This document shows positions 32,277-64,000 of a stretch of 64,000 bases of DNA, one piece after another (position 1 is the first letter of the stretch; each line of letters opens with the position of its first letter). The stretch is taken from assembly GCA_964593705.1 (NCBI GenBank), contig CAZQIV010000015.1, positions 11,454-75,453 on the forward strand, read 5' to 3'. A program made the position numbers and the translations under genes. The notes below the pieces were generated by a model. That model saw only the letters and a program-made list of their open reading frames with translations, ran no database searches and had not been told where the DNA came from. Source of the stretch: an uncultured Lentimicrobiaceae bacterium (GTDB lineage Bacteria > Bacteroidota > Bacteroidia > Bacteroidales > 4484-276).

Positions 32277-34436
32277 CTATTTTCCTTTTCTTTCCCACAC
32301 GGTAAAATTCGACAACGTGTGCTGGAATTTATTTTGGGTTTCACGAATTACAAAAGGCACTTTAAATGGCTCGGCGATGCACTTGAAATGCTTGTCAAGG
32401 TGGCGGTGCAATCCATCGAGGGTGGTAACGGGTTCGCCGTCCTCTTTGTAGCCGCCCAGCCATTTTTCGCGTTTGGTGTATTCTGCCAGCCAGGTGTAGG
32501 GTGAGGCAATTACAAGGATGCCGCCGGGATTTAATCGCCCGGAGATCATCTCCAGAAACTTGCCGGGATCATAGAGCCTGTCGATAAGGTTGCCGGCGAA
32601 GATCAGATCGTAGTTTGTAAAATGTGGTTTAAGGTTTACAGCATCGGCCTGGAAAAATTCGACTTTCTTTTCCAAACCCTTAAAACCAAATTCCTCCATC
32701 GAAACTTCGTGGTACGAAACCAGTTCGCCTTCTTCGGGCAGCACATAGTGGATATATCCTTTTTCGATGAGTTCATCTGCAATTTTTATAAAGCGTGCCG
32801 AAAAATCGAGCCCGGTTACCTTATCGAATTTACGTGCCAGTTCAAAGGTTGACCGTCCGGTAGCACAACCCAGGTCGAGGGCTCGTTTCATTGGGCAACC
32901 TTCCATATATTTTAAGCAAATTTCGGCTGAATTTTTAGGGAAGTTGGGAACATCATAGTATTCCTTGCCATAGTGGGATTCGCAATACTGCGAAACCAAA
33001 GCATCGGTTTCGTAAACATCTTCGCGTACTTTTACCGGTGCATCACTCTGGATATATCTAAAACCTGCATGTTGGAAAAAATGCCTGCGGAAGGCATACC
33101 GCGCATCAAGGGTGGCTTCATTTCCGGTGGAAATCCACGATCCGCCTTTTATGATATTGTGTTTGGTGTCGAAGGTAGGGGTTGAAAAATCGTCGTATAA
33201 GGGATGAACCTCAAAGCCCGGGAAACCGGAAATGGGCGTTTCGGTCCATTGCCACACGTTGCCAACTACATCGTAGAAGTCGTTAAATTTAAAGGTATCA
33301 ACCGGTACTGAGGAGGCAGCTACTTCAAGGTTGATATTACCGGGAGCTTTGTCCCAATTATGTAGATCGGGTACCTTTTGCAAATCCCGGAAATATGTCC
33401 ATTCTTCTTCGGTGGGTAGCCTGAATGTTTGGCCGGTTTTTTTACTCTTCCAGTTGGTGAAGGCTTTTGCTTCCAGTTGGTTCACTTCTACTGGCCAGTT
33501 CCAGGGCATGTCGATAATTTCGGCCATAGTGCGGAATTTCCAGCTTCCGTCATTTTGTTTTATCCACCATAATGGGTGGATGACCTTTTTAAAGTTGCGC
33601 CAGTTCCAGCCTTCTTCAGTCCAATATTCCTGAGTTTCGTAAGCATTATCCTCAACAAATTCAAGAAACTCACCGTTTGACACCAGGAATTTCGAGGCTT
33701 TGAAAGGGTGGATTTCTTCGCTTATTTTACCATATTCATTATCCCAGCCGTAAAGGGCATGATCCCGTGTTTTTCCAAGTGTTACTTCGCCACCGGGCAC
33801 TTCAATTAATTGGTTTTCGGGAGCTTTGCCCCAGTGCTCATGGATTTTCCACAAGGGATGTTTTTTAAGCTGTTCGATGGGAAGCTGGCGGATGAGCACC
33901 GATGAAGTTTCGAGGTGGATGCGTTCGTGTTCGATTCCCATAAGGATAGGCCACCAGGGGCTTTCCCAATTGATGGGTATGTCGAGGGGCAGGGTGTTAA
34001 TCAAATGATCAATCACTTTGCGTACTTCATCACGGTAATCCTGAACTTCCTTAATTGTTGGCCAGTCGTAGTGTTTATCATTTAAATCATCCCACGACAT
34101 TTCGTCAACACCAATGGCGAAAGTGGATTCGAAACCGGGGTTTACGCGTTGGTCGATGAGCTTGGCAAGAATGAGCTTGTTGATAAAAAATGTTGCCGTA
34201 TGTCCAAAATAAAAAACCAGTGGATGACGCAAGGGATCGGCACGCATGTAATATGCCTCATCGCTGCTAAGTACTTCGAAAAGTTTCTCGTAAACATCGT
34301 AAGTTTCATGAAAGTAAGCGAGGATTTCATTTCGCTTTTCTTCGGGGTTTCCATTATTTAAAATGATTGTTTTTGTAATTAATGTTGATGTCGTCATAAA
34401 TATTATTTTTTCAGTTTCATTACTATTTTTAAACAA
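32277..34436 (-). CDS. ovoA: Ovothiol biosynthesis protein OvoA (5-histidylcysteine sulfoxide synthase / methyltransferase)
   Basis: 719 aa with three domains in order: DinB-like ('HPLVFYFGHTATFFINKL', 'GIEHERIHLETS'), FGE-sulfatase-like ('GNVWQWTETP') and a C-terminal SAM methyltransferase ('LDLGCATGRSTFELA'). Confidence 0.85.
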   Translation of the reverse strand: MFKNSNETEKIIFMTTSTLITKTIILNNGNPEEKRNEILAYFHETYDVYEKLFEVLSSDEAYYMRADPLRHPLVFYFGHTATFFINKLILAKLIDQRVNPGFESTFAIGVDEMSWDDLNDKHYDWPTIKEVQDYRDEVRKVIDHLINTLPLDIPINWESPWWPILMGIEHERIHLETSSVLIRQLPIEQLKKHPLWKIHEHWGKAPENQLIEVPGGEVTLGKTRDHALYGWDNEYGKISEEIHPFKASKFLVSNGEFLEFVEDNAYETQEYWTEEGWNWRNFKKVIHPLWWIKQNDGSWKFRTMAEIIDMPWNWPVEVNQLEAKAFTNWKSKKTGQTFRLPTEEEWTYFRDLQKVPDLHNWDKAPGNINLEVAASSVPVDTFKFNDFYDVVGNVWQWTETPISGFPGFEVHPLYDDFSTPTFDTKHNIIKGGSWISTGNEATLDARYAFRRHFFQHAGFRYIQSDAPVKVREDVYETDALVSQYCESHYGKEYYDVPNFPKNSAEICLKYMEGCPMKRALDLGCATGRSTFELARKFDKVTGLDFSARFIKIADELIEKGYIHYVLPEEGELVSYHEVSMEEFGFKGLEKKVEFFQADAVNLKPHFTNYDLIFAGNLIDRLYDPGKFLEMISGRLNPGGILVIASPYTWLAEYTKREKWLGGYKEDGEPVTTLDGLHRHLDKHFKCIAEPFKVPFVIRETQNKFQHTLSNFTVWERKGK

Positions 34437-47860: not shown

Positions 47861-49045
47861 TTAAATGAACTCTATCACCACTTCTTTTAAAAATTTATCT
47901 TCGAGGATGGCTGCAATTCTTTTAATTACAGTTCTGCGTATTTCGAGTTCGATGGGCAGGGTTGGATCCTGATGGGCAATGTTGATGCGTGTTCCAATGA
48001 TGAAATCTATTTCATCACTTTCAATGATCATTTTTACAATACGGTCGGCGGGGCCTTTGCCCAACATTGTTTGATTGTTATAATCTTTAAGGATAATCGA
48101 AACCTTGGTCAGGGTAAGGATGCCTTCGGTGATCAGGTCAACACCATCCATAAATGAAACCGGCGGGAGGTCAGGGTCTTCAAAATCAAAGGTGTCTTCG
48201 ATTTCTTTGCCCCATTCGCGTGCTATTATGTCGCCGGTTGTGGCTCCTGATAGTACTTTTAGGCCGGCAAAGTTTTTTACTTTTTCAGCATAAATTTTAT
48301 CGTGATCTTTTTCATAAGGAGGCCCTGAACATATAAGCATTTTTCGGGGTTCCCTAAAGTAGATTTGGGCACAACTTGTATCATCTTTCGATTCGAAATT
48401 ATCGTTTTGAACCGCTTTTTTTACCACCCTGGCGCTCAGTTCTGCTGCTGATAAGTCAGGGTGCTTCACAACTTCCCCTATTAAAAATTCTATCAAATCT
48501 TCTCGCCCCCAGCCAAATGGGTATTTATCAGTACCTAAGCCCGATTGGGTAATGCCATCGGAGCAAAAAATAATGCGGTCTTCCTTTTCGGGTGTAAAGG
48601 AACAGGTGCGTAATTCCTTACCCTGATTTTGTTCAGAATTCAGGAATACCTGTTGCCATCCCGGATCCATAATTGTGTTATCCCTAACGATAATAGTCTG
48701 TGGATTATCATATTCGAGAATACTAACATTTCCAGCAATTTCAATATCGAGAATAGTAAAGGTAGCGTAACTGATTTTACGTTCGCTGCATACCGGAAGG
48801 GTGTTCATAATAATCTCTGCAATCTTCTCCAAATTCTGGTGTTCTACCGTAAAATTCAGCGCCATTGTCGAAGTGAGTGTTGCCAGCATATTGGCTTTCA
48901 CGCCGTGCCCCATGCCGTCAGAAAGCACAGCGATAATCCGGTTTTCTTCCTTCACCTTTTTGTGCAGGAATACATCCCCACATATCCGCTCCCCGGCATG
49001 GTTCCGTTGCTGACAATTAACTTCTATATGGAATTCCTTTGACAA
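47861..49045 (-). CDS. PP2C/SpoIIE-family protein phosphatase with uncharacterised C-terminal domain
   Basis: 'ERICGDVFL...AVLSDGMGHGVKANMLATLT' and 'IIFCSDGITQSG'. About 190 aa at the C-terminus match no family I recognise. Confidence 0.8.
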   Translation of the reverse strand: MSKEFHIEVNCQQRNHAGERICGDVFLHKKVKEENRIIAVLSDGMGHGVKANMLATLTSTMALNFTVEHQNLEKIAEIIMNTLPVCSERKISYATFTILDIEIAGNVSILEYDNPQTIIVRDNTIMDPGWQQVFLNSEQNQGKELRTCSFTPEKEDRIIFCSDGITQSGLGTDKYPFGWGREDLIEFLIGEVVKHPDLSAAELSARVVKKAVQNDNFESKDDTSCAQIYFREPRKMLICSGPPYEKDHDKIYAEKVKNFAGLKVLSGATTGDIIAREWGKEIEDTFDFEDPDLPPVSFMDGVDLITEGILTLTKVSIILKDYNNQTMLGKGPADRIVKMIIESDEIDFIIGTRINIAHQDPTLPIELEIRRTVIKRIAAILEDKFLKEVVIEFI

Positions 49046-49334
49046 AATATGACTGAGTTTTGTAACTATTTAGCTATTTTTCCTCTCCCCCTGCCCCTCT
49101 CCATAAGGAGAGGGGAGCCCTCTCTCATGGGATTTGTACATGTATGCTTTAGCCGAAGCGCTTTGCTTTTTCATTTCCTCCAAGTCCCATGAGTTCAGGC
49201 ACCCTTTCCCAGTTGGGGAAAAGGTGTCGGTGCCGAGACGAAGTCTCGTGCATGCACGAGCAAAGCTCGGCAGGATGGGGTCATGATGATTAGGTATTCA
49301 ATCCACCACCTAAATAATTACTGATTTTTAATAT

Positions 49335-49417
49335 TAAAAAAACCCTCCCGCAGATTTCGCTGACCTGCCTAGCCGGCAAGGCTGGTTTGCGCAGATTTAA
49401 TCAGCGAAATCTGCGGG
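49335..49417 (-). terminator. Possible minus-strand terminator / long-loop hairpin between hydS and the phosphatase gene
   Basis: A 17-bp stem (cccgcagatttcgctga / tcagcgaaatctgcggg) is followed on the minus strand by a T7 run. The 37-nt loop is atypically long. Confidence 0.35.
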
Positions 49418-49574
49418 AAAAAATACTAAAAAGACCGATACTAATGAATCCCCGATCATCATCCAAAAAAACAATAACCCTTGATCCCGATAGCTATCAG
49501 AATTATCGGGGTAACAATTAGCAATATCTTATTACCAATAACCATTAACTAATAACTATTAACCAATAACCCTT

Positions 49575-51425
49575 TTACCCCTTCTTTTTCCTGTGCAATT
49601 GAATAATCGAATTTAGCATGGCCTCCGTTTTTGATGCCCCTTCACCCAGCAAAAAACCAATTTGTTGTACCATCCCCAAATTCTGGTCGATAACTTCGGT
49701 TACCCTTTGAATAATTTGTTCGTTACGCACTTCAGGCGAAAACATATCCCTTACTATACCTCCAACCACTTTTTTATCTTTTATCGAAAATACACTTAGA
49801 TTTAAAAATGCTTCATCAATCTTAACATCCCTGCTCAGGATATTTTCGCCGGTAACAAGCACATTTTGAAACACTTTATAAAACTGCACAGGCACCAGGG
49901 TTTTAAGGTCGGCACCCCGAAGGCCGGGTATTATTTCATCTATGTCGCGGGCTTCGTCACCAAGGATTTCAATAAAACTGCGGTTTGAAGAAGTGATTTT
50001 TAACTTGTGATCGACAATAACCACGCCCGAAGGAATCTGATTCATGATGGCACGCGAAGTCTCCAGCTTGTCGTTTGTAAGTTCAAATTCTAACAGACGT
50101 TCTTTAAGTTCCTTTTTAAGATGCTCGATTTCTTTCTCTGATTTCGATTTCGAGTTGCGGAGTGTTTCGATGTATTTATTTTTATTTTTATTATTAAAAT
50201 CCAAACACATATCAGTACGTGTAATTCCATTTGCCACAGCTTTTGCAAACGACTGGCAGGAATCAAAGCCGCAACTGGTACACATCCCGGTTGATTCCCC
50301 GGATTTATCAAGCAAGGTCAAAATTTCATCCACCCTCGAGGCGGCAGGTTCTTCTGCACGCTGATCATCAGATTTAAACCGGCAATTCAGATTTAAGTCC
50401 TTGAATTTCTCCATTTCAAGCTGCCATTTCTTTTCATCCAGATTTTTTATTCTACGTTGGGTATAGTCTAAAACCTGGGCTGTCCTTAAATGTTTGTCAC
50501 CCTTTGGCGACATGCCCGGACCCATCATACATCCTTCGTTGTAAAACACATTAAAATGCTTCTGTACCCGTTCAGTGTTTTTTTCAAACGATTCGATGGC
50601 ATTCAATGAGGATATTTTTCCTTCGGCGCTTATTACCCTTCCATTAAGAAAACTTTGATCGATTGAAGCTGCTTCCAAAATGCCGCTGCTTAGTGGGTAT
50701 AATGAACCAAGATTGCCATGGGGCGGATCAAAATCAGAATATTCGAGTTGGCTTTCGTGTATGTCTTTGTCATCGAAAAGCTGCCTTAACTCGGCAAAAG
50801 TGAGCGCTGCATCAACCTCGGAATTTTCGTCAAATTCGCCCGACCAGAGTTTGGCCGCGATGCATGGCCCAACAAACACAGTTTTGGTTTGCTCGCCATA
50901 TACTGATTTTGCAACCCTTGCAGTTGCATCCATTGGCGAAATAACAGGGGTTAGATTTTTGGTGAGGTCGGGATGAAACTTACGAACCAACTCTACCACA
51001 GCCGGACAATTGGCGGTAATGTAATATTTTCCCCTGCTTTGTTCAAAAAGGGCTTTGTACTTTTGTGAAACAAGGTCAACACCAAAGGAAACATCCAGTA
51101 CAAATTCAAACCCGATCTGTCTTATCATCTCAACAAATTTGCGATAGTCAGTAATATCAGGAAATTCAGCTGAAACACTAGGGTCAACTAAAGCCGCAAC
51201 TTTATGCTCTGATTTTAGCAGGCTGTTAACTCTTGATTTTGAATCATAATATCTAATCCCATCACTTGAGCAGGCAGTAATACATGAACCACACCCAATG
51301 CATCGTTCAGGATCAATTTCGGGATGATCCTTGCCTACTTTTACAATAATGGCATGTACAGGGCAAACTCTTGCACAATGTAAACAATCAGTACATTTTT
51401 CAGGTATGATTTCGATCAGTGCCAT
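49575..51425 (-). CDS. hydS: Sensory-type [FeFe]-hydrogenase paralog with C-terminal PAS domain (HydS/HfsB-like)
   Basis: Two ferredoxin-type CX2CX2CX3CP motifs and an H-domain with 'ITANCPAV' and 'FVGPCIAAK'. Also carries the CX2CX4CX16C motif 'CTSCGFDSC...(16)...C', a coiled coil and a PAS domain ('IPSGVVIVDHKLKITSSNRSFIEILG'). Confidence 0.85.
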   Translation of the reverse strand: MALIEIIPEKCTDCLHCARVCPVHAIIVKVGKDHPEIDPERCIGCGSCITACSSDGIRYYDSKSRVNSLLKSEHKVAALVDPSVSAEFPDITDYRKFVEMIRQIGFEFVLDVSFGVDLVSQKYKALFEQSRGKYYITANCPAVVELVRKFHPDLTKNLTPVISPMDATARVAKSVYGEQTKTVFVGPCIAAKLWSGEFDENSEVDAALTFAELRQLFDDKDIHESQLEYSDFDPPHGNLGSLYPLSSGILEAASIDQSFLNGRVISAEGKISSLNAIESFEKNTERVQKHFNVFYNEGCMMGPGMSPKGDKHLRTAQVLDYTQRRIKNLDEKKWQLEMEKFKDLNLNCRFKSDDQRAEEPAASRVDEILTLLDKSGESTGMCTSCGFDSCQSFAKAVANGITRTDMCLDFNNKNKNKYIETLRNSKSKSEKEIEHLKKELKERLLEFELTNDKLETSRAIMNQIPSGVVIVDHKLKITSSNRSFIEILGDEARDIDEIIPGLRGADLKTLVPVQFYKVFQNVLVTGENILSRDVKIDEAFLNLSVFSIKDKKVVGGIVRDMFSPEVRNEQIIQRVTEVIDQNLGMVQQIGFLLGEGASKTEAMLNSIIQLHRKKKG

Positions 51426-51427
51426 AA

Positions 51428-51676
51428 TTATTTCAATAACTCTTCTTCGAGGATTTTCAGAATTTCATCTTCACCTACACGCTCATAGCGATGGTCGTTG
51501 ATTTTGAAACCGGGCCCATTTTCACAATTCCCAAAACAGTGTTTTCCTTTAAAGTTAACCTTATGTGTAAGTTGATTGTCTTCCAAAAACTTTTTCACAA
51601 TATACACCATTTGCTTATTGCCTCTTGCAAAACAAGAACTCCCAAGGCAAATTATCAGATCTTTCTTTTTTAACAT
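51428..51676 (-). CDS. Thioredoxin-like [2Fe-2S] ferredoxin (NuoE-fold, HfsA-like)
   Basis: 82 aa with a CX4C...CX3C pattern ('CLGSSC'...'CFGNC'). Its stop lies 3 nt from the hydS start. Confidence 0.72.
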   Translation of the reverse strand: MLKKKDLIICLGSSCFARGNKQMVYIVKKFLEDNQLTHKVNFKGKHCFGNCENGPGFKINDHRYERVGEDEILKILEEELLK

Positions 51677-51992: not shown

Positions 51993-52457
51993 ATGAATAA
52001 GATAGAGGAGGTGCTTCAAAACTTTCCGAATCACGATCGGGAAAATTTGCTCCCGATTTTGCAGGAAATACAAAAAGCCGAAGGATACATTTCGGAAGAT
52101 GCCGTAGTAAAAGTTGGGAGTTATCTAAATATTCCTACCAGTAAAGTGTATGCAGTATCCACCTTTTACGACCAATTTAGGTTTACAGATAAGGCAAAAT
52201 ACCAAATACATCTTTGCAATGGTACTACCTGCCATCTGGAGGGTGCAGGTAACTTGTTGAAGGCATTTGAAAAGCAACTGAATATTTCGTCAGGACAATT
52301 GACAAAAGACAAATTGTTTGGCATAGCTACCAAACCTTGCATGGGCGCTTGTGGTATGGCTCCGGTTGTTAAAGTAAATGAAAAATTTTATACAGGTTTT
52401 ACTTTGGACAGGGTACAAGAGCTAATTGCTTCGATAAAAGAAAGCGAGGGGGTGTGA
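51993..52457 (+). CDS. hydC: [FeFe]-hydrogenase NuoE-like [2Fe-2S] subunit
   Basis: 154 aa with 'HLCNGTTCHLEGA' and 'KPCMGACGMAPV'. Overlaps hydB by ATGA (52454-52457). Confidence 0.9.
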   Translation: MNKIEEVLQNFPNHDRENLLPILQEIQKAEGYISEDAVVKVGSYLNIPTSKVYAVSTFYDQFRFTDKAKYQIHLCNGTTCHLEGAGNLLKAFEKQLNISSGQLTKDKLFGIATKPCMGACGMAPVVKVNEKFYTGFTLDRVQELIASIKESEGV

Positions 52458-54397
52458 TGGTAACAGAACCCGATTCAAAATATTTAATCGAAAATGTAGT
52501 ATCGAATTTCACACGCGAATACGATGAAAAGGTTCAAAAAAAGATGAACTTTTTGTTGAGGAGAAATTTGAAAAAGCCTGTGATTTTTGTCGGAACCGGT
52601 ACCTGTGGCATTGCAGCAGGGGCAGATCAAACACTTGTAGCTGTTGAAACGTATTTAAAAAAAAATCAATTAGATGCCGATATAGTTGAAGTTGGCTGTA
52701 TTGGACTGTGTAGTGCAGAGCCCCTGCTCGACTTTCAAACACCAGGAAAAGCACGGGTGAGTTTTCAGAAAGCAGGCCATTCAAAAGTTGAAACCATCCT
52801 TGATGAATGTTTTCATAACCATATTTCGGGCAATAATGTTTTAGGTCAGGTTAGGAATGATGAACATGAGTATTGGGAAGGTATTCCCATCATCAATGAT
52901 TTGCCTTTTTTTAAAAAACAAAAACGGGTGTTGCTGTTTGACTGTGGCGAAATTGCACCAAACAGTATTAATGAATACATGGCCCGGGAAGGCTACATGG
53001 CTTTTGTCAAAACCATTTTAAATTACCCCCCCGACATGGTCTGCAATATGATCGAACAAAGTGGCCTCAGGGGAAGGGGTGGTGGGGGTTTTCCAACTGC
53101 CAAAAAATGGAATGTGGTGAGGTCGATCGGTGGAGAACAAAAGTACCTGGTTTGCAATGCCGATGAAAGCGATCCCGGAGCCTATATGGATCGGGCGCTT
53201 GTTGAGGGAAATCCCCACAGGCTGATTGAAGGAATGGCCATTGCCGCGTATGCCATCGGGGCTACGAAAGCTTATGTTTACATCCGCTCTGATTATTCGG
53301 TTGCAGTAAAGCGTTTAAAAAGCGCTTTGGAACAGGCAAAAGAAAATGGGTTTTTGGGAAGGAACATATTTGGCAGCGGAGTTAATTTGCAGATATTTTT
53401 ACGCGAAGGCCCGGGTGCTTTTGTGTGTGGTGAAGAAACAGCATTATTGAAAAGCCTGGAAGGCCGGCGGGGTATGCCACGATCAAAACCTCCCTATCCA
53501 AGCGAAAAAGGATTATTTGGTAAGCCTACGATTGTAAACAATGTGGAGACCCTGGCAAATGTTCCCTTGATTATTTTGAATGGTCCCAAGTGGTTTAAGG
53601 CCATCGGAACACCCGAAAGTGCAGGCACAAAACTCTTTGCCCTGGCTGGTGATACGATAAATACAGGAATTATTGAAGTTCCTTTTGGCATCGGCCTCGA
53701 TGAGATAATTTACGAAATTGGCGGAGGACTGAAAGATGAAAAAATGCTTAAAGCTGTCCAAATCGGTGGGCCTTCGGGCAGCCTGATTCCCGAACAAAAT
53801 ATCGATATAAAAATAGATTACGATGCTTTCAAAGCTGCTTACCTGATTATGGGTTCCGGTGGTCTTGTGGTAATGGACAACAGGAAGTGCATTGTTGATA
53901 CTGTTAAGTATTTTATTGATTTCCTCCAGAAAGAATCTTGTGGGAAGTGCATCCCCTGCCGCGAAGGCACCAACAGAATGTACAAGATTTTGGATGCCAT
54001 TACACAACGGCCTGATGAGGATAATGGCCATGAGTCTCTTATGCGATTTAAGGGTATTTTGCAACTCGAAAGCCTGGCTGAAGTAATCAGCGAAACCTCA
54101 CTTTGTGGCTTGGGTAAAACTGCTCCAAATCCTGTTCTGTCGGCGCTCAAATGGTTCAGGGACGAGTTTGAAGAACACATTTACGAAAGGAAATGCAGGG
54201 CCAATGTTTGTAAGGATTTACGTACTTATATAATCAGTGCCGAACGGTGTACCGGATGCATGGTGTGTTTGAAAAAATGCCCGGAAGATGCCATCACAGG
54301 TTCTGCCAGGCAAACACATTTTATCAACCAGGCAAAGTGTACAAAATGCGGTGTTTGCTATGATGTATGTAAATTTTCAGCTATTGATATTTTATAA
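52454..54397 (+). CDS. hydB: [FeFe]-hydrogenase NuoF-like flavoprotein subunit (NAD(P)H-binding)
   Basis: 647 aa. N-terminal thioredoxin-like 2Fe-2S, FMN site 'GLRGRGGGGFPT', 'CGKCIPCREG', and two C-terminal 4Fe-4S motifs ('CTGCMVCLKKCP', 'CTKCGVCYDVC'). Confidence 0.92.
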   Translation: MMVTEPDSKYLIENVVSNFTREYDEKVQKKMNFLLRRNLKKPVIFVGTGTCGIAAGADQTLVAVETYLKKNQLDADIVEVGCIGLCSAEPLLDFQTPGKARVSFQKAGHSKVETILDECFHNHISGNNVLGQVRNDEHEYWEGIPIINDLPFFKKQKRVLLFDCGEIAPNSINEYMAREGYMAFVKTILNYPPDMVCNMIEQSGLRGRGGGGFPTAKKWNVVRSIGGEQKYLVCNADESDPGAYMDRALVEGNPHRLIEGMAIAAYAIGATKAYVYIRSDYSVAVKRLKSALEQAKENGFLGRNIFGSGVNLQIFLREGPGAFVCGEETALLKSLEGRRGMPRSKPPYPSEKGLFGKPTIVNNVETLANVPLIILNGPKWFKAIGTPESAGTKLFALAGDTINTGIIEVPFGIGLDEIIYEIGGGLKDEKMLKAVQIGGPSGSLIPEQNIDIKIDYDAFKAAYLIMGSGGLVVMDNRKCIVDTVKYFIDFLQKESCGKCIPCREGTNRMYKILDAITQRPDEDNGHESLMRFKGILQLESLAEVISETSLCGLGKTAPNPVLSALKWFRDEFEEHIYERKCRANVCKDLRTYIISAERCTGCMVCLKKCPEDAITGSARQTHFINQAKCTKCGVCYDVCKFSAIDIL

Positions 54398-54429: not shown

Positions 54430-54518
54430 ATAACGAATAATACCGGGCTTCGCTCGAGCATCCTCGAAAAGTTACGAAAATCAAGATTTTCTACTTTTCG
54501 GGACAATTAACCAATAAC
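54430..54518. repeat. Composite hairpin element E1, 'empty' form, in the hydB-hydA spacer
   Basis: ataacgaataataccgggcttcgctcgagcatcctcgaaaagttacgaaaatcaagattttctacttttcgggacaattaaccaataac. It is homologous to 56701-56797 and, in reverse orientation, to 61160-61271 and 62300-62432. Confidence 0.85.
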
Positions 54519-54531
54519 TCCAAAGCTTCAC

Positions 54532-56253
54532 ATGATCTTCAATATCGAAGTAAATAATAAAACCATCAGAGCAAAGAAAGGAGACACCATTCTTGAAACA
54601 CTCAGGAGAAATGGTATTTCGGTGCCAACGCTTTGCAACATGGAGACATTCTCGCCTACGGGAGCTTGCCGGATTTGTGTGGTTGAAGTAGATGGCCACG
54701 ATGACCTGATTCCTGCCTGCTCGCACCCTGTGGATGAGTGGATGAAAATACATACTCATTCTCCAAAGGTGATAAGGGCAAGAAGAACGATTGTTGAATT
54801 ATTGCTTTCCAGCCATCCGGATGATTGCCTTTACTGCATCCGAAATAAGAATTGTGAATTGCAAACCCTGGCCGAAGAATTGGGAATTAGGGAGCGTCGT
54901 TTGCCGATTGTAAAAAAGAATCTGAAAAAAGACCCCTCCTGTTCCAGCATAGTGCGCGATCCGGATAAGTGCATTCTTTGTGGAAGGTGTGTGCGGATGT
55001 GTAAAGAGAAAATTGGGGTTTCCACCTTCGATTTTATCGGAAAAGGAATGAAAACAATTGTTGGCCCAACATTCAACAATCTGCTCAATATTTCCAATTG
55101 CATCACCTGCGGGCAGTGCATCATGGTTTGCCCAACGGGAGCATTACACGAGAAAGAACATATAGGTCAGGTGCATGAGGCCTTGCAAAATCCAGAGAAA
55201 TACACAGTTGTCCAGATTTCGCCAACAATTTCAGTTTCGCTGGCCGAAGAATTTAATGTGAAATCAGGTAAGGAAATGGATGGACTTTTGGTAGCAACAC
55301 TTCGGAAGATCGGTTTTAAAAAAGTTTTTAAAACAGCTTTTGCTGCCGATATTATGGTGTTGCAAATCGTTGAAGAACTGGTAAGCCGGATTGAGCAAAA
55401 TGAAAACCTCCCCATGTTTTCGAGCGATTGTCCGGCATTTATCAAGTATATGGAAGAATACCATCCCGACATGCTTCATCATATTTCGGTTTACAAATCA
55501 CCACAACAAATCATGGGCAGCCTTATCAAACATCATTTTTCGCGTCAACAAAAGATAAAGGCTGAACAGATTCATTCAGTATCGCTTATGCCCTGTACTG
55601 CAAAAAAGTTTGAAGCACAACGCGAGGAAAACACGCACAAGGGTATCCAGGATGTGGATTCGGTGCTTACTACACGTGAGCTTGCACGACTAATTCGTCT
55701 CTATGGATTGGATATTCAGCAGGCCGAACCTGAATTAGCTGACAGCCCTTTTGCCATTCGCAGTTCGGCGGGTAAAATAATTGGAGCAAGCGGGGGGGTG
55801 GCCGAGGCGGTTTATCGCACACTTTATCACACCATGACAGGTAAAAATCTTTTAAACTTCAAAATTACAGCCTTGCGAAGCAACAAAAATGTGAAAGAAC
55901 TCCATAGCAAAATTGGAAAAACCAAGATTGGTATTGCCGCGGTAAATGGACTTGAAAATGCTAAGGATCTCATACGACAAATTAAAGCAGGCAGGGACGA
56001 TTTACAATTTATCGAGGTAATGGTTTGTCCGGGAAGTTGCATTAACGGTGGAGGACAACCCATATCAAAGAATAAAGAGGCCGTAAAAGCCAGGATGAAA
56101 TCATTGTATGATATCGATGAAAAGGAGTCGATAAAAGTATCGTATAAAAATCCGGCAGTGAAAGATCTGTTTGAAAAATACGATGGAAAGGAGAAAGAAT
56201 CATTCAGGGAAAAACTCAAAACAAGTTACAGAAAAAGGGATGTATTGCTATAA
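54532..56253 (+). CDS. hydA: [FeFe]-hydrogenase large subunit (M3 architecture) with non-canonical L1 motif
   Basis: 573 aa. N-terminal plant-type 2Fe-2S, a His/Cys 4Fe-4S, and 2x[4Fe-4S] ('CILCGRCVRMC', 'CITCGQCIMVCP'). H-domain motifs are 'PMFSSDCPAF', 'LMPCTAKKFE' and 'EVMVCPGSCINGGGQP'. Confidence 0.9.
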   Translation: MIFNIEVNNKTIRAKKGDTILETLRRNGISVPTLCNMETFSPTGACRICVVEVDGHDDLIPACSHPVDEWMKIHTHSPKVIRARRTIVELLLSSHPDDCLYCIRNKNCELQTLAEELGIRERRLPIVKKNLKKDPSCSSIVRDPDKCILCGRCVRMCKEKIGVSTFDFIGKGMKTIVGPTFNNLLNISNCITCGQCIMVCPTGALHEKEHIGQVHEALQNPEKYTVVQISPTISVSLAEEFNVKSGKEMDGLLVATLRKIGFKKVFKTAFAADIMVLQIVEELVSRIEQNENLPMFSSDCPAFIKYMEEYHPDMLHHISVYKSPQQIMGSLIKHHFSRQQKIKAEQIHSVSLMPCTAKKFEAQREENTHKGIQDVDSVLTTRELARLIRLYGLDIQQAEPELADSPFAIRSSAGKIIGASGGVAEAVYRTLYHTMTGKNLLNFKITALRSNKNVKELHSKIGKTKIGIAAVNGLENAKDLIRQIKAGRDDLQFIEVMVCPGSCINGGGQPISKNKEAVKARMKSLYDIDEKESIKVSYKNPAVKDLFEKYDGKEKESFREKLKTSYRKRDVLL

Positions 56254-56700
56254 AAGAGTATGGAAATTGGAGAATAAATAGAAAAGAAAACTTGATTATC
56301 AATAATCAAAAACGATTAATCTGCCGCTGGCCGGAAAAGCTCAACAACTAATAAAAGGTACTACTGCGAATTTAGTGGAAAGTAAAATATTAATCATGAG
56401 TAGTAAAATAGATTTCTCAGTCCCCGAAGTGTCGGGGCAGGCTGCAAACTTCTTCGAAATGACAGGGCTTTGGCGGGTTTGTTGGGGTGGTTGAAAGTGG
56501 GCGCTTCGCGCCCACTTTCAACCACCCCTTGTGGAGTCCTATCCTTGTGTTTTCGAACCGCCAACTGGCGGTGAGACCTACCTCGCCAACACCATTGCTT
56601 ACACTAACGGCCCGCTTCGCAGCGAGGCGAGCAAGGCGGGAATCTGTTTACGGTGATAGTAATTATTTACATCCACGAAAATGGTAATAGAACCTAATAT

Positions 56701-56797
56701 AATAACGAATAACTAATAATGCCGAGCTTTGCTCGGGCATCCTCGAAAAATTACGAAAATCAAAGATTTTCTATTTTTCGGGACCAATAACCATTAA
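56701..56797. repeat. Composite hairpin element E1, 'empty' form, upstream of the hydrogenase-kinase gene
   Basis: ataacgaataactaataatgccgagctttgctcgggcatcctcgaaaaattacgaaaatcaaagattttctatttttcgggaccaataac..., in the same orientation as 54430-54518. Confidence 0.85.
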
Positions 56798-56875
56798 CGA
56801 ATAACCAATAACCATTAACGAATAACCATTAACCAATAACCATTAACCAATAACGAATAACTAATAACGAACACC
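56784..56875. repeat. Degenerate heptamer microsatellite (NAWTAAC x ~13)
   Basis: caataac cattaac gaataac caataac cattaac gaaataac cattaac caataac cattaac caataac gaataac taataac. It ends 4 nt before ATG 56879. Shorter runs of the same words occur at 49531-49572, 54505-54518 and 32243-32275. Confidence 0.85.
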
Positions 56876-56878
56876 CCA

Positions 56879-58867
56879 ATGAGTCACTCGAAACGTAAAC
56901 AATTGGTATTTACTGTAAAAGACCGCTGCAGGGTATGCTACACCTGCGTAAGAGAGTGTCCTGTAAAGGCCATTCGTATTGAAAATGGCCAGGCCGAAGT
57001 GATCAATGAGCGCTGCATTGGCTGCGGTAATTGTACCATAGTGTGCAGCCAGGGCGCTAAAGTTTTTTTGCAAACAGGTGATGATTTAAAAACCTTGCTA
57101 CAGGAAGGGCAAAAAGTAGCAGCAATCATTGCCCCAAGTTTTCCGGCTGAATTTACCGAAATAGATGATTACAAAACCTTTGTCGGGATGGTAAGGAAAT
57201 TAGGTTTTAACCTGGTTTGCGAGGTAGCTTTTGGTGCAGATATGGTAGCGAGGGAATATAAAAAAATGCACCATGAGCGGGGTAAGCTTGGGAGCATCTC
57301 ATCTGATTGTCCCGCGATTGTATTTTATATTGAGCATTACCATCCCCACCTGGTAAAGGATTTGGCAAAAGTTGTTTCGCCTATGGTAGCCATGACACGG
57401 GTTGTAAAAGAAAAATATGGCAGCGATACCAAAGTTGTTTTCATTGGCCCCTGCATTGCTAAAAAAGCTGAGTCGGATGAAGTTGATGAGTCTATTACTT
57501 TTAAGGAATTAAGAGATCTTTTTACAGCAAACAATATTACCCCAAAAAACACCGACTCCACAGACTTTGATCCGCCCCATGCAGGAAAAGGAGCAATTTT
57601 CCCTGTAAGTCGCGGATTGTTGCAAACAGCAGGTATTTCAGAGGATATCATTAACGAAAATGTAATTGTTGCTTCAGGGAGGGTTAATTTCAGGGAGGCT
57701 GTCAGGGAATTTGAAAACGAAGAAGAAGATAAGCACCACCTAGAGCTCTTATGCTGTCGGGGTTGTATTGTTGGTCCGGGAATGTCGAAACGAGGTTCGA
57801 GATACAGCCGACGTACCAAGGTGAGTAATTACGTTAGAAAAAGATTGCAGGACATCGACAAGAGTGAATGGGGAAAAAATGTAGAAAAGTACAGCACACT
57901 CAATTATCAGCAGCAGCACGATGTTCGGGATCGCAGGCTGCCGGTGCCAAGCGAAGACCAAATCAGGGAAGTATTGGAAACTATTGGGAAATTTGAAGAA
58001 AAAGATCATTTAAATTGTGGTTCCTGCGGTTACGATACCTGCCGCGAACATGCCATTGCCATTGTGCAGGGACTGGCCGAGGATGAAATGTGTCTTCCCT
58101 ACAGCATCGAAAAATTACATCAATCCATTAGTGACCTTAACACCTCAAATAAAAACCTGGCTTCAACAAGACAGGCATTGAAGCAATCAGAAAAACTCGT
58201 AAGCCTGGGGCGCCTTTCAGCCGGAATTGCGCATGAGCTTAACAATCCCCTGGGTGTAATTACCATGTACAGCAACATTCTTAAAGATGAAGCGGCCGAA
58301 GACGATCCGGTCCGTCAGGATCTTGATCTCATTATAGAACAGGCTGCAAGATGCAAGAAAATTGTTGGTGGCTTACTCAATTTTGCACGGAAAAGTCAGG
58401 TTAACCTTAGCCCAACCAATATTATCGATTTTGTAAAACAAAGTCTAACATCCGTAATTAAACCTGAGAATATCATCATTGATTTTCAAAGTGAAATATC
58501 AAATCCAATGGCCAATATTGATACCGACCAGATGATGCAGGTGCTAACCAACCTTGAAAAGAATGCGGTGGAAGCCATGCCCGATGGTGGAATACTTAGT
58601 ATAACTCTTAATAATGATGCTGAACAAATTTTTATCAATATTGGCGATACAGGTACAGGTATTTCAAAAGAAAATATGGAACATGTTTTCACGCCATTTT
58701 TTACTACAAAAGGAATTGGCCAAGGTACAGGGCTCGGCCTGCCGTTGGTTTATGGAATAGTAAAAATGCACAAGGGGAAGATTGATGTCGTTTCAAATGC
58801 CGATCCTGAATCCGGGTCAACAGGAACTACTTTTAAAGTAAGCTTTCCGCGAGCTTTGGAGAATTGA
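56879..58867 (+). CDS. Sensory [FeFe]-hydrogenase H-domain fused to a histidine kinase
   Basis: 662 aa. 2x[4Fe-4S] ('CRVCYTCVRECP', 'CIGCGNCTIVCS'). H-domain 'ISSDCPAIV', 'FIGPCIAKKAE' and 'LLCCRGCIVGPG'. CX2CX4CX16C motif ('CGSCGYDTC...C'). Then HisKA 'SAGIAHELNNPLG' and HATPase_c boxes ('NLEKNAVEAM', 'IGDTGTGI', 'GTGLGLPLV'). Confidence 0.87.
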   Translation: MSHSKRKQLVFTVKDRCRVCYTCVRECPVKAIRIENGQAEVINERCIGCGNCTIVCSQGAKVFLQTGDDLKTLLQEGQKVAAIIAPSFPAEFTEIDDYKTFVGMVRKLGFNLVCEVAFGADMVAREYKKMHHERGKLGSISSDCPAIVFYIEHYHPHLVKDLAKVVSPMVAMTRVVKEKYGSDTKVVFIGPCIAKKAESDEVDESITFKELRDLFTANNITPKNTDSTDFDPPHAGKGAIFPVSRGLLQTAGISEDIINENVIVASGRVNFREAVREFENEEEDKHHLELLCCRGCIVGPGMSKRGSRYSRRTKVSNYVRKRLQDIDKSEWGKNVEKYSTLNYQQQHDVRDRRLPVPSEDQIREVLETIGKFEEKDHLNCGSCGYDTCREHAIAIVQGLAEDEMCLPYSIEKLHQSISDLNTSNKNLASTRQALKQSEKLVSLGRLSAGIAHELNNPLGVITMYSNILKDEAAEDDPVRQDLDLIIEQAARCKKIVGGLLNFARKSQVNLSPTNIIDFVKQSLTSVIKPENIIIDFQSEISNPMANIDTDQMMQVLTNLEKNAVEAMPDGGILSITLNNDAEQIFINIGDTGTGISKENMEHVFTPFFTTKGIGQGTGLGLPLVYGIVKMHKGKIDVVSNADPESGSTGTTFKVSFPRALEN

Positions 58868-59080: not shown

Positions 59081-59467
59081 ATGAAGAAAACAATTTTGAT
59101 TGTTGATGATGATATGGATTACCTGTTTCAATTGAAATTAAAAGTTGAAAAGTTTGGCTTTGATGTGGTAACTGCTGATGGGCAACGCGAAGGTGAAAAA
59201 GTAATTGAATCGCTCAAGCCCGATTTGGCCATTATTGATTTGATGATGGAAAACGAAGACAGTGGATTTGTATTGAGCTATAAAATAAAAAAGAAATACC
59301 CCAATGTGCCGGTAATCCTCGCCACCGCAGTTACTGCCGAAACAGGCATGGGTTTCGATCTGAGCGAAGCAAGTAACAAAGAATGGATTAAGGCCGATTT
59401 AATCCTGGACAAAGGTATCCGGGGCGATCAACTCGAAAAAGAGATTAAGAAATTATTAAAAATATAG
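59081..59467 (+). CDS. Stand-alone response-regulator receiver (CheY-like)
   Basis: 128 aa with 'ILIVDDD', phospho-acceptor context 'DLAIIDLMM', and a conserved T/K region. No output domain. Confidence 0.85.
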   Translation: MKKTILIVDDDMDYLFQLKLKVEKFGFDVVTADGQREGEKVIESLKPDLAIIDLMMENEDSGFVLSYKIKKKYPNVPVILATAVTAETGMGFDLSEASNKEWIKADLILDKGIRGDQLEKEIKKLLKI

Positions 59468-59805: not shown

Positions 59806-60924
59806 ATGGCAAAACTAAAAATACTGGTTGTTGATGATGAACCGGGCATCCGCTCTGGAGTTATACGCATCTTACGAAACTTTAAGGTGGATTATCCTTT
59901 TATGGATGAACACTATGATTTCCAGGTGTTCGAGGCTGCCGATGGGGAAGATGGAATAGCGCTTATAGATGGCGAGCAACCGGATATTGTGCTACTCGAC
60001 AACAAGCTTCCCGGCATACAGGGGGTGGAGGTATTGGAGTACATCCGCAACAAAAAGTACGATATGTTTGTGGTAATGATCACGTCTTATGCCTCCTTGG
60101 AACTGGCCGTAAAGGCTACCCACGATGGGGCAGTTGACTTTATCCCGAAACCATTCACACCCCAGGAACTCAAATCATCGCTCGAAACCATTGTAAAGCA
60201 GATTTACCTTAAGCGTATGGCCCGCGAAATGAAACAGCAGGGCAAACAAATCCGCTTTCAGTTTTTATCAGTTTTATCACACGAGCTTAAAGCGCCCCTC
60301 AATGCCGTTGAAGGTTATCTTAATATAATTAAAGACCGCCAGTTGGGAGATAATATTAACGATTACAACGAACTTATCAATCGGTCGTTGAAAAGGCTGT
60401 CGGGGATGCGTAACCTGATTTTTGATCTTTTGGATCTTACTAAAATAGAATCGGGCAAACAAAGCCAGCGGACGGAAAACACTGATTTGGTAACTATTGT
60501 GCGCAATGCTATCGATACCATGATGCCTTTTGCCATCCAGAAAGAAGTGGAGGTAGCATTGAATGGACCTGAAAAAATGATTAAATTTATCGATCCCGAA
60601 GAAATGGAAATCATTTTAAATAACCTCATTTCAAATGCTATAAAGTACAACAGGCAAAAAGGAACAGTGAATATTAACCTTGCTGAAGGAGATGGTAAAA
60701 CAACAATTCGGGTTGAAGATTCGGGAATTGGCATCAATAAAGAGGACCAGGCAAAGCTTTTCAAGGACTTTTCGAGGATAAAAAATCCGAAAACAAAAAA
60801 TATAACAGGAAGTGGGCTGGGATTATCCATTGTAAAAAAAATAGTTGAACTAAATAAGGGAAGTATCCAAGTTGAAAGCGAACCGGATAAAGGGACTGTT
60901 TTTACTGTAATCTTACCTGTTTAG
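59806..60924 (+). CDS. Hybrid receiver-histidine kinase (REC-HisKA-HATPase_c)
   Basis: 372 aa with 'ILVVDDEPGIR', 'DIVLLDNKLPG', H-box 'LSVLSHELKAPLNAV', N-box 'NLISNAIKYN', and G-boxes 'VEDSGIGI' and 'GSGLGLSIV'. Confidence 0.88.
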   Translation: MAKLKILVVDDEPGIRSGVIRILRNFKVDYPFMDEHYDFQVFEAADGEDGIALIDGEQPDIVLLDNKLPGIQGVEVLEYIRNKKYDMFVVMITSYASLELAVKATHDGAVDFIPKPFTPQELKSSLETIVKQIYLKRMAREMKQQGKQIRFQFLSVLSHELKAPLNAVEGYLNIIKDRQLGDNINDYNELINRSLKRLSGMRNLIFDLLDLTKIESGKQSQRTENTDLVTIVRNAIDTMMPFAIQKEVEVALNGPEKMIKFIDPEEMEIILNNLISNAIKYNRQKGTVNINLAEGDGKTTIRVEDSGIGINKEDQAKLFKDFSRIKNPKTKNITGSGLGLSIVKKIVELNKGSIQVESEPDKGTVFTVILPV

Positions 60925-61150: not shown

Positions 61151-61280
61151 TGTGGACTGCCAATCCCGAAAAGTAGAAAATTTCAGAATTTCGTAACTTT
61201 TCGAGCCCGCCTTGCCGCCAGCATAGGCTTTTGTTTAGGCGAGGCAGGGATGCACGGGCGAAGCCCGGCACTGTGGACTG
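61151..61280. repeat. E1 composite (reverse orientation) carrying a 43-nt nested insertion
   Basis: cccgaaaagtagaaaat...ttcgtaacttttcgag | cccgccttgccgccagcataggcttttgtttaggcgaggcagg (61206-61248) | gatgcacgggcgaagcccgg. It is flanked by tgtggactg on both sides. Confidence 0.85.
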
Positions 61281-62289: not shown

Positions 62290-62455
62290 CAGTGGACTGT
62301 GAATCCCGAAAAATAGAAAATCTATGATTTTCGTAATTTTTCGTGCCCGCCTTGTTCGCCTCGCTGCGAAGCGGGCCGCCAGTGCAGGCTTTTGTATAGG
62401 CGAGGCAGGGATGCACGGGCAAAGCCCGGCACTGCCAACTGTGGACTGCCAACTG
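62290..62455. repeat. E1 composite (reverse orientation) carrying a 64-nt doubly nested insertion
   Basis: The framework is the same as 61151-61280. The insert at 62346-62409 equals the 43-nt module plus a further 21 nt (ttcgcctcgctgcgaagcggg) inside it. It is flanked by gtggactg words. Confidence 0.85.
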
Positions 62456-63414: not shown

Positions 63415-64000
63415 ATGATATTCAATCCGGAGAAATACGCCATTCCTGACGAAGCCATGAAACCCTTCATCGACCCTGATGAAATTAATGGATACCTTCA
63501 AAAATCAAAAGCCACTAAGGCCAGGGTTAGGGAAATAATAGCCAAGTCGCTTTCCAAAAAGCGCCTTAACCTTGAAGAAACAGCCACGCTCATCAATGCA
63601 GATGACCCTGAGCTGATCGGGGAAATAAAAAATGGCGCCCGCGAACTCAAGAAAACGGTCTATGGGAATCGTATTGTTTTGTTTGCCCCGCTTTATATTG
63701 GTAATCATTGCATTAATAATTGTAAATACTGCGGTTTTAAAGCCTCCAACAAATTTGCAGTCCGCCGCAAATTAACAGATGAGGAAATTATACGCGAAAC
63801 CGAGGCTCTTGAAGATAATGGCCAAAAACGTCTTATTCTGGTTTATGGAGAACATCCCATGTACAACCCCGAATTTATTGCGCATTCTGTGAAGTTGGTT
63901 TATGGTGTGAAAAAAGGAAACGGTGAAATCAGGCGTGTTAATATTAATGCCGCACCACTCGACATCGAGGGTTTCCGCACGGTGAAAAATGCCGGTATAG
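63415..64000 (+). CDS. hydG: [FeFe]-hydrogenase maturase HydG (radical SAM, ThiH-like), 5' partial
   Basis: An open frame from ATG 63415 runs off the window, so it is absent from the ORF track. Translation: 'MIFNPEKYAIPDEAMKPFIDPDEINGYLQKSKATKARVREII...LFAPLYIGNHCINNCKYCGFKASN'. It has a CX3CX2C motif and a HydG-like N-terminus. Confidence 0.82.
   Translation, partial: MIFNPEKYAIPDEAMKPFIDPDEINGYLQKSKATKARVREIIAKSLSKKRLNLEETATLINADDPELIGEIKNGARELKKTVYGNRIVLFAPLYIGNHCINNCKYCGFKASNKFAVRRKLTDEEIIRETEALEDNGQKRLILVYGEHPMYNPEFIAHSVKLVYGVKKGNGEIRRVNINAAPLDIEGFRTVKNAGI

Follow-up and report, generated by a model that had tools for sequence, protein, structure and literature searches.

Catalytic [FeFe] hydrogenases are described as strictly conserving two residues, the relay cysteine and Glu279 (PMC3485046, PMC6226526, PMC11803613), and the locus reported here raises the question of whether such an enzyme can work in nature without either of them. 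The locus lies in a stretch of 64,000 nucleotides from an uncultured Lentimicrobiaceae bacterium (contig CAZQIV010000015.1; this whole stretch is called the window below), and its central gene, hydA, encodes the catalytic subunit of an M3-type [FeFe] hydrogenase with Asp299 at the relay position. On sequence comparison we favour, with moderate confidence, the reading that the product is a working HydABC hydrogenase which would use Asp299 as a carboxylate relay within a remodelled inner proton path.

The assignment of the relay column leaves little room for choice. Between residue 207 and about residue 370 HydA aligns with the hydrogenase CpI without gaps, the numbering of the two proteins being identical there, and the Asp299 codon (GAT, nt 55426-55428) falls on Cys299 of CpI. 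Alignment with HydA1 of Thermoanaerobacter kivui, again free of gaps, pairs Asp299 with the leading Cys of TSCCP. This is where a preliminary description of the locus, made from the letters alone, had placed the aspartate, and no alternative alignment brings a Cys to the relay, since the sole Cys of the L1 motif is the retained cluster ligand Cys300. The best-scoring CpI entry for the H-domain was itself the C299D variant 6glz. All four Cys ligands of the H-cluster (C300, C355, C499 and C503) are present, and the ligands and the MPC of L2 (within MPCTAKKFE) that the description reported as retained were found, with every motif it quoted, at the expected places. Phe303 stands in L1 in place of Trp, and W303F is one of several further changes from CpI, the others being E279I, E278Q, F417I, D267K, A230S and S232T; F417I (the residue beside the amine of the azadithiolate, adt), W303F, D267K, A230S and S232T are, together with Y335H, clade-specific. 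The description had also counted the Met of GGVMEA among the second-sphere changes. Ala424 is indeed found there, but Met424 is not an established second-sphere methionine, that term applying to the retained M353 and M497; many Cys-type relatives, moreover, have Thr or Ala at position 424.

In HydA, Pfam models identified Fer2_4, NADH-G_4Fe-4S_3 (His-ligated 4Fe-4S), two Fer4 domains, Fe_hyd_lg_C (PF02906, 4e-80) and Fe_hyd_SSU, a layout of 2Fe-2S, His-ligated 4Fe-4S, 2x4Fe-4S, H-domain and SSU-like tail that corresponds to the M3 type known from bifurcating hydrogenases and from CpI and its like. With TIGR02512, a broad model of group A, the score was 417 against a cut-off of 405.95. The closest solved relative is HydA1 of the T. 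kivui HydABC complex (8a6t_A, E 2e-149), with CpI next at about 1e-110. An AlphaFold2 model computed from a 39-sequence alignment reached predicted local distance difference test (pLDDT) values of 80-94 in the H-domain, matched 8a6t and CpI, and retrieved in Foldseek 8a6t first, then Acetobacterium woodii HydA1 and CpI; the cofactor-dependent ferredoxin domain was modelled poorly (pLDDT below 50 for residues 120-207). Of the features of group A, HydA thus has the fold, the four Cys ligands and the L2 and L3 motifs and lacks the relay Cys of L1 and the canonical proton pathway, and its operon, with the co-encoded NuoF-like HydB and NuoE-like HydC, is of the group A3 kind. The same domain architecture is found in T. 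kivui HydABC and in group A3 broadly (T. maritima 7p5h, A. woodii 7q4v); the T. kivui protein, at 571 residues against 573, shares with the window HydA the NuoE- and NuoF-like partner genes, the H-cluster ligands, M353, K358 and M497. It differs in having TSCCP, Glu278-Glu279, Phe417, Met424, Trp303 and Gly502, where the window HydA has SSDCP, Gln278-Ile279, Ile417, Ala424, Phe303 and Ser502.

Enzymes of the sensory groups C and D, such as TmHydS and TamHydS, also show no conservation of Glu279 or of the relay Cys, and protons have been proposed to take other routes in them (PMC10055695, PMC10407848, PMC11803613). These sensors mostly have Ala, Pro or Ser at position 299 and have lost M353 and M497; they are furnished with PAS or kinase domains and, at the C-terminus, with an Fe-S motif. 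Unlike them, the window HydA keeps both methionines and a NuoG-like F-domain, and it has neither a signalling domain nor PF04060. It is likewise distinct from degenerate HydA-like proteins, which keep the Cys ligands while losing K358, M353 and other [2Fe]-binding residues.

The exchange at position 299 is not the only change along the route by which protons would reach the H-cluster; a second one, at Glu279, was not listed in the preliminary description and is the larger anomaly. In group A this route runs R286-E282-S319-E279-water-C299-adt and has been termed strictly conserved; in CpI, activity falls below 1% in the variants E279A and E279Q, where water does not take up the vacant space (PMC6226526). 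Read inwards to outwards, the canonical C299-E279-S319-E282-R286 becomes D299, I279, S319, E282 and R286 in the window HydA, so that the inner two residues are replaced and the outer three kept. In the AlphaFold2 model residues 269-288, which contain the altered positions 278 and 279, form one helix with pLDDT of about 90. Because Glu279 (now Ile) and Glu278 (now Gln) have changed as well, the protein is not simply a CpI C299D made by nature, and as judged from its residues the inner half of its proton pathway appears either rebuilt or broken.

The two changes go together across the family. Glu279 occurs in none of 75 Asp-type sequences, compared with 66 of 113 Cys-type ones (Fisher p ~4e-20, a value not corrected for phylogeny), and Glu278 in 18/75 compared with 112/113, while the outer residues persist in the Asp-type sequences: Glu282 in 75/75, Arg286 in 73/75 and Ser or Thr at 319 in 71/75. 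This co-variation points to a functional tie between Asp299 and proton transfer. In a neighbour-joining tree of 208 HydA sequences, calculated from distances that excluded the diagnostic columns, we found a canonical Bacteroidales clade (E278, E279, C299, W303, F417, M424, G502; n=62), several Cys-type clades that have lost E279 and kept E278 (n=47), an Asp clade of 21 sequences, D2, that is sister to Cys-type Glu279-less sequences, and the clade of the window, D1, comprising 43 Asp sequences with M353 and K358 plus nested variants. The 47 Cys-type Bacteroidales proteins without Glu279 (among them P0065-P0078, P0088-P0097, L011-L018, L047 and L062) have Leu, Val or Met there, Glu278 in 100% of cases and also A230S, which suggests that in otherwise ordinary-looking Cys-type group A3 enzymes Glu279 is either dispensable or replaced. 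Those compared directly with the window HydA (P0065-P0078, P0088-P0097, L047, L062) share its operon, 57-61% identity, Ser230 and Thr232, keep Glu278, and differ in retaining Cys299, Trp303, Gly502 and an aromatic residue at 417; on this tree such groups are the sisters from which both Asp clades emerge. In both Bacteroidales Asp clades the loss of Glu279 comes before the change from Cys to Asp, and there are at least four independent origins of Asp, each on a non-Glu279 background, whereas Glu279 is found in 100 of 107 Cys-type representatives. The simplest reading would be that the pair at 278-279 and the relay passed from EE with Cys to E-x with Cys, then to E-x with Asp and at last to Q-x with Asp, Asp becoming the buried acid and the neighbouring Glu dispensable.

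As to how common the aspartate is, we searched 5.8 billion clustered proteins and scanned the whole family by exhaustive HMMER over 1.84 billion representatives. The best 120 matches to HydA were Bacteroidota proteins from metagenome-assembled genomes (MAGs) only. Those at 68% identity or more form one clade with S-S/G/A-D-C-P, within which Asn299 is nested (P0047-P0060, P0086) and which has a single Ser299 sequence (P0063) at its base. Cys-type proteins and a second Asp-type set reading SSDCPAW are found intermingled at 57-61% identity. The preliminary description had called for a count of Asp at this column in a broad set, and among 149 usable nearest representatives (50% clustering) column 299 is Cys in 107, Ser in 15, Ala in 5, Asn, Phe and His in 4 each, and Asp in 2. 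Asp299 is thus rare in the family as a whole and fixed in particular lineages. Asp-bearing representatives outside D1 and D2 are P0229, from a Propionibacteriaceae MAG and beside a NuoF-like gene, and P0173. D2 includes a protein of the cultured Lentimicrobium saccharophilum TBC1 (GAP44922.1 / WP_062044872.1), and a passage of PMC7190589, citing Sun 2016, reports H2 among the sugar fermentation products of that organism as a whole. We found no description of a natural Asp at the relay column of a group A enzyme in the open-access literature, which is not proof of absence. Low activity has been reported for the group A3 HydA of Bacteroides thetaiotaomicron (PMC12578642); no sequence link between that protein and the Asp clades appeared in the main text of the report, its supplements or the cluster names. 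A separate observation concerns the neighbouring column: in many HydA proteins of the M3 type the motif reads TSCSP, with Ser at column 300, the [4Fe-4S]H ligand column of CpI. Examples are A. woodii HydA1 (7q4v_A), 20 of the 107 Cys-type representatives and the protein of locus L079.

Within D1, a clade of roughly 50 clusters, the aspartate is conserved in all 43 members, down to about 70% identity, and among the D1 loci it is encoded by GAT (6) and GAC (4). Because the residue is invariant while both codons are in use, Asp299 must be under selection. Around it the D1 first shell (P231, C300, P301, S323, P324, Q325, M353, P354, C355, K358, E361, M497, C499 and C503) is 93-100% conserved; position 417, 100% Phe in canonical relatives, is the only first-shell site that varies.

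The genetic context is that of an ordinary hydrogenase (Table 1). The domain layout of HydB is of the bifurcating type, and the order hydC-hydB-hydA-hydS(HK)-response regulator-histidine kinase recurs in essentially all 80 Bacteroidales loci that we retrieved, whether their HydA has Cys, Asp or Asn; the Asp-type hydA is therefore the positional orthologue of an ordinary group A3 hydrogenase gene. Both here and in L. saccharophilum, a gene for the H-cluster maturase HydG follows about 7 kb further downstream. The complete hydG (475 aa) is found on the same-strain contig L086, and the L. saccharophilum orthologue scores 510 bits with TIGR03955. The L. saccharophilum locus (L081) has in addition a gene for the Rex redox repressor between the hybrid kinase gene and ribF.

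Table 1. Genes and sequence motifs of the hydrogenase locus, in window coordinates.
Feature	Position	Strand	Details
Divergent second sensor module	47861..51676	-	SpoIIE-type phosphatase 47861-49045; HydS-PAS 49575-51425; thioredoxin-like 2Fe-2S protein 51428-51676
hydC, NuoE-like thioredoxin-like 2Fe-2S subunit	51993..52457	+	PF01257, 1.4e-44
hydB, NuoF-like FMN/NADH subunit	52454..54397	+	N-terminal extension, C-terminal 2x[4Fe-4S] domain; Complex1_51K, NADH_4Fe-4S, Fer4 x2; nuoF_fam 2e-141
hydA, M3-type [FeFe] hydrogenase catalytic subunit, Asp299 at relay position	54532..56253	+	573 aa, open reading frame (ORF) intact
Helix segment QIVEELVSR, aa 278-286	55363..55389	+	Gln278 and Ile279 for CpI Glu278 and Glu279; Glu282, Arg286 kept
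L1 motif LPMFSSDCPAF, aa 293-303	55408..55440	+	Gapless alignment to CpI and T. kivui HydA1
L2 motif MPCTAKKFE, aa 353-361	55588..55614	+	M353, C355, K358, E361 kept
IGASGGVAEAV (GASGGVAEAV, aa 418-427)	55780..55812	+	Ile417 for Phe417, Ala424 for Met424
L3 motif EVMVCPGSCINGGGQP, aa 495-510	56014..56061	+	M497, C499, C503 kept, Ser502 for Gly
hydS-HK, sensory [FeFe] hydrogenase fused to histidine kinase	56879..58867	+	Fe_hyd_lg_C, PF04060, HisKA, HATPase_c
Response regulator	59081..59467	+	3' of hydS-HK, conserved
Hybrid receiver-histidine kinase	59806..60924	+	3' of hydS-HK, conserved
hydG 5' part, H-cluster radical-SAM maturase	63415..64000	+	Runs off window end; TIGR03955 168 bits over 195 aa

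What an aspartate can do at this position is known from engineered enzymes. In line with the preliminary description, Asp is the only replacement of the relay Cys that stays active: CaHydA C298D, CpI C299D (6glz) and CrHydA1 C169D, with Asp at the same column as in the window HydA, keep 10-80% of H2 evolution and show a lower pH optimum and a bias towards evolution, and in the crystal structure the Asp carboxylate hydrogen-bonds the adt amine at 2.7 Å (PMC3485046, PMC6226526, PMC9563086). CpI C299D alone keeps 30-80% activity (PMC6226526), and CaHydA C298N is inactive (PMC3485046). In these mutants the rest of the pathway (Glu279, water, Ser319, Glu282) is intact, whereas the window HydA has neither Glu279 nor Glu278 and shows several changes that co-vary. 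The suggestion that this might be a natural carboxylate-relay hydrogenase therefore stands in part: the clade-wide conservation of Asp, the HydABC operon and the nearby hydG speak for it, but the pathway is also interrupted at Glu279, and a simple exchange of Cys for Asp does not describe the protein.

In the mechanism we propose, HydA would form H2 as a subunit of a HydABC-type hydrogenase, an electron-confurcating enzyme of group A3, in which NADH would enter at HydB and reduced ferredoxin at the complex, and electrons would pass to a normal H-cluster in HydA. There the carboxylate of Asp299, instead of the thiol of Cys299, would donate protons to the bridging amine of the H-cluster. With the inner textbook half of the path (Glu279 and its water) deleted, and Ile at 279 and Gln at 278, Asp299 would be the only buried acid and would have to connect by water, or by a slightly shifted route, to the retained Ser319, Glu282 and Arg286. 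The sequences themselves show the substitutions, how these are conserved and co-vary, the operon and the nearby maturase gene; that the H-cluster is occupied, that the enzyme is active, which path the protons take and which direction it favours are what we infer here. By analogy with the Cys-to-Asp mutants one would expect a lower pH optimum and a bias towards H2 evolution, which would fit a fermenter disposing of reductant; H2 production is probably the favoured direction of the window enzyme. As the H-cluster is unlikely to be rate-limiting in a bifurcating complex, a slower proton path could be tolerated.

Several observations weigh against a working enzyme of this kind. HydA clears the TIGR02512 cut-off by a narrow margin only, and NF040763 (NCBIfam 'group A6') is its best specific model, yet at 676.8 bits it stays below the cut-off of 765. 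By the CpI yardstick Ile279 should block the canonical route, and the sequence offered no replacement for it. The ratio of H-domain to F-domain divergence, a domain-wise measure used since synonymous sites are saturated at 70-80% protein identity, rises from 1.12 in canonical sequences to 1.42 in Cys-type ones without Glu279, 1.50 in D1 and 3.31 in D2. Among 41 non-Cys representatives only 9 keep K358 and 4 keep M353, so that a pocket without the relay Cys is usually a degenerate one. Sub-lineages nested in D1 have shifted to Asn299 with K358 changed to Ala, Gly or Glu (loci L006, L008; P0047-P0060, P0086), all with the four Cys and the hydCBA-sensor operon kept, and others to K358 Arg or M353 to Glu or Thr, a pattern suggestive of a site that is decaying step by step. 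Proteins of the Asn299/K358Ala form are abundant, P0052 being found on 264 contigs of as much as 2.86 Mb. Judging from its residues, this form probably derives from a hydrogenase and can no longer bind [2Fe]H, yet its sources label it '[FeFe] hydrogenase, group A'. These points can be read together as an attenuated or decaying hydrogenase, in which the H-cluster would still be made, the path would be broken by the loss of Glu279, and Asp299 would be tolerated or weakly compensating under relaxed selection, with the Asn299/K358Ala sub-clade having completed the loss; the less than 1% activity of CpI E279A and E279Q (PMC6226526), the variability of position 417 and the loss of K358 in 32 of the 41 non-Cys representatives fit this account as well. 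We hold it to be unlikely, though it deserves to be taken seriously, because Asp is 100% conserved across the 43 sequences with synonymous codon turnover, the remaining first shell is hardly altered, and Asp arose at least twice independently on a Glu279-less background with Glu278 released only later, a course of events more suggestive of compensation than of drift; H2 is also produced, according to the passage cited above and at the level of the organism, by the cultured L. saccharophilum of D2. A more radical form of the argument would have HydA keep its Fe-S clusters only, the HydABC-like complex acting as an NAD(P)H/ferredoxin oxidoreductase. Stn-type transhydrogenases, which are hydrogenase-derived, are the comparison here, and there are many M3-type HydA-like representatives that keep the four Cys and have lost C299, E279, K358 and M353, as well as the abundant nested sub-clade with its operon. 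For the window protein we judge this improbable: it retains K358, M353, M497, P324, Q325, S323 and E361, which hold the [2Fe] subcluster, hydG lies nearby, and position 299 strictly keeps an ionisable residue of the sole kind known to support catalysis. That the aspartate is a sequencing or assembly artefact, or the gene a pseudogene, has a practically negligible chance and is refuted: the 573-aa ORF is intact, 6 contigs from several samples encode exactly this protein, Asp is found in dozens of independent MAGs and one isolate genome, and nothing was found in favour.

The remaining alternative concerns not the function of the aspartate but its origin. The preliminary description had seen the string SSDCPA also in the kinase-fused sensor HydS-HK, where we located it at aa 141-146 (nt 57299-57316) with Asp at the relay column and Gly at the M353 equivalent, and had taken this to suggest that the catalytic and sensory paralogs are closely related or have exchanged sequence. 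Both neighbouring HydS proteins have the features of sensory hydrogenases, namely a signalling domain, PF04060 and loss of M353 and M497. A gene conversion from hydS-HK to hydA would account for the same hexapeptide in two genes some 1.9 kb apart, and a donor existed, for Asp is ancestral in the sensor family: it reads (S/T/N)(S/T)DCP in 66 of 68 Bacteroidales loci and has Asn in the other 2, and 56 of the 66 have a Cys-type HydA. However, the two proteins are only 24% identical. Under the motif their genes agree at 12 of 18 nucleotides and encode the second Ser by AGC in one case and TCT in the other, which are different Ser codon classes, and the flanking 108 nt are 49% identical. The second Asp clade, moreover, reads SSDCPAW with different flanks, and an ancient event would explain where the residue came from and not what it does. 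We therefore reject gene conversion as very improbable; going by these sequences, the Asp of the sensor is an old family trait, with no sign of recent exchange with hydA. That a sub-family of sensors conserves Asp at this column is a minor novel finding in its own right; for sensory hydrogenases, published surveys report Ala at about 43%, Cys at 17%, Pro and Ser there (PMC10055695).

Some features of the surrounding DNA are recorded here in their own right. Two different sensor systems flank the one hydrogenase operon, the relay column of the upstream HydS-PAS being Asn (ITANCPAV), and in the retrieved loci this upstream second-sensor module occurs with Glu279-less HydA clades and not with canonical ones. 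The spacer between hydA and hydS-HK (56254-56878) measures 625 bp; most related loci have some 15-260 bp at this place, and multi-kb insertions occur in a few. The spacer of the window holds a 45-nt GC-rich palindrome (56484-56528) and an AATAACC-like repetitive tract. An element of 40-90 nt from this spacer recurs at no fewer than four other intergenic sites (54430-54518, 62304-62343, 61164-61205 and 49534-49571) and looks like an intergenic repeat of the REP (repetitive extragenic palindrome) or MITE (miniature inverted-repeat transposable element) kind. In locus L085 (European Nucleotide Archive ERZ27316679, k141_223980) an identical HydA is followed by an epimerase and glycosyltransferases where hydS-HK is expected, the result of either a strain-level rearrangement or a chimeric assembly. 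The window also encodes a full-length OvoA (5-histidylcysteine sulfoxide synthase and methyltransferase; 32277-34436, minus strand; TIGR04344 700 bits, TIGR04345 350 bits). The known OvoA enzyme requires O2, and the host looks like a strict anaerobic fermenter.

Returning to the reading that Asp299 serves as a carboxylate relay in a working enzyme, we advance, more tentatively than that reading itself, a wider proposal that we regard as plausible though a little short of probable: two Bacteroidales lineages may independently have rebuilt the group A inner proton path by losing Glu279, replacing Cys299 with Asp as the sole buried acid and making Glu278 dispensable, and the same clades may show, in Asn299 and the loss of K358, the next steps towards a non-hydrogenase. 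If this is true, these proteins would be the first natural carboxylate-relay H-cluster enzymes and a natural experiment on how the pKa of the proton donor sets catalytic bias. The Cys-to-Asp exchange is the key engineered variant from which it has been argued that the pKa of the donor governs both the pH optimum and the bias of catalysis; a natural Asp-type enzyme with its own co-adapted second sphere would make that model testable in a protein shaped by selection instead of a single mutant, and the cultured L. saccharophilum TBC1 makes the system experimentally tractable. The finding also bears on how hydrogenases are counted. Screens based on motifs drop sequences without L1 (PMC6085437) and would miss or misclassify these enzymes, which are abundant among Bacteroidales of anaerobic digesters and sediments, while annotation based on homology counts the Asn299/K358Ala forms as 'group A hydrogenases', which, from their residues, they probably are not. 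The Asp-type enzymes would further tell us whether bifurcating complexes can do without the canonical proton pathway.

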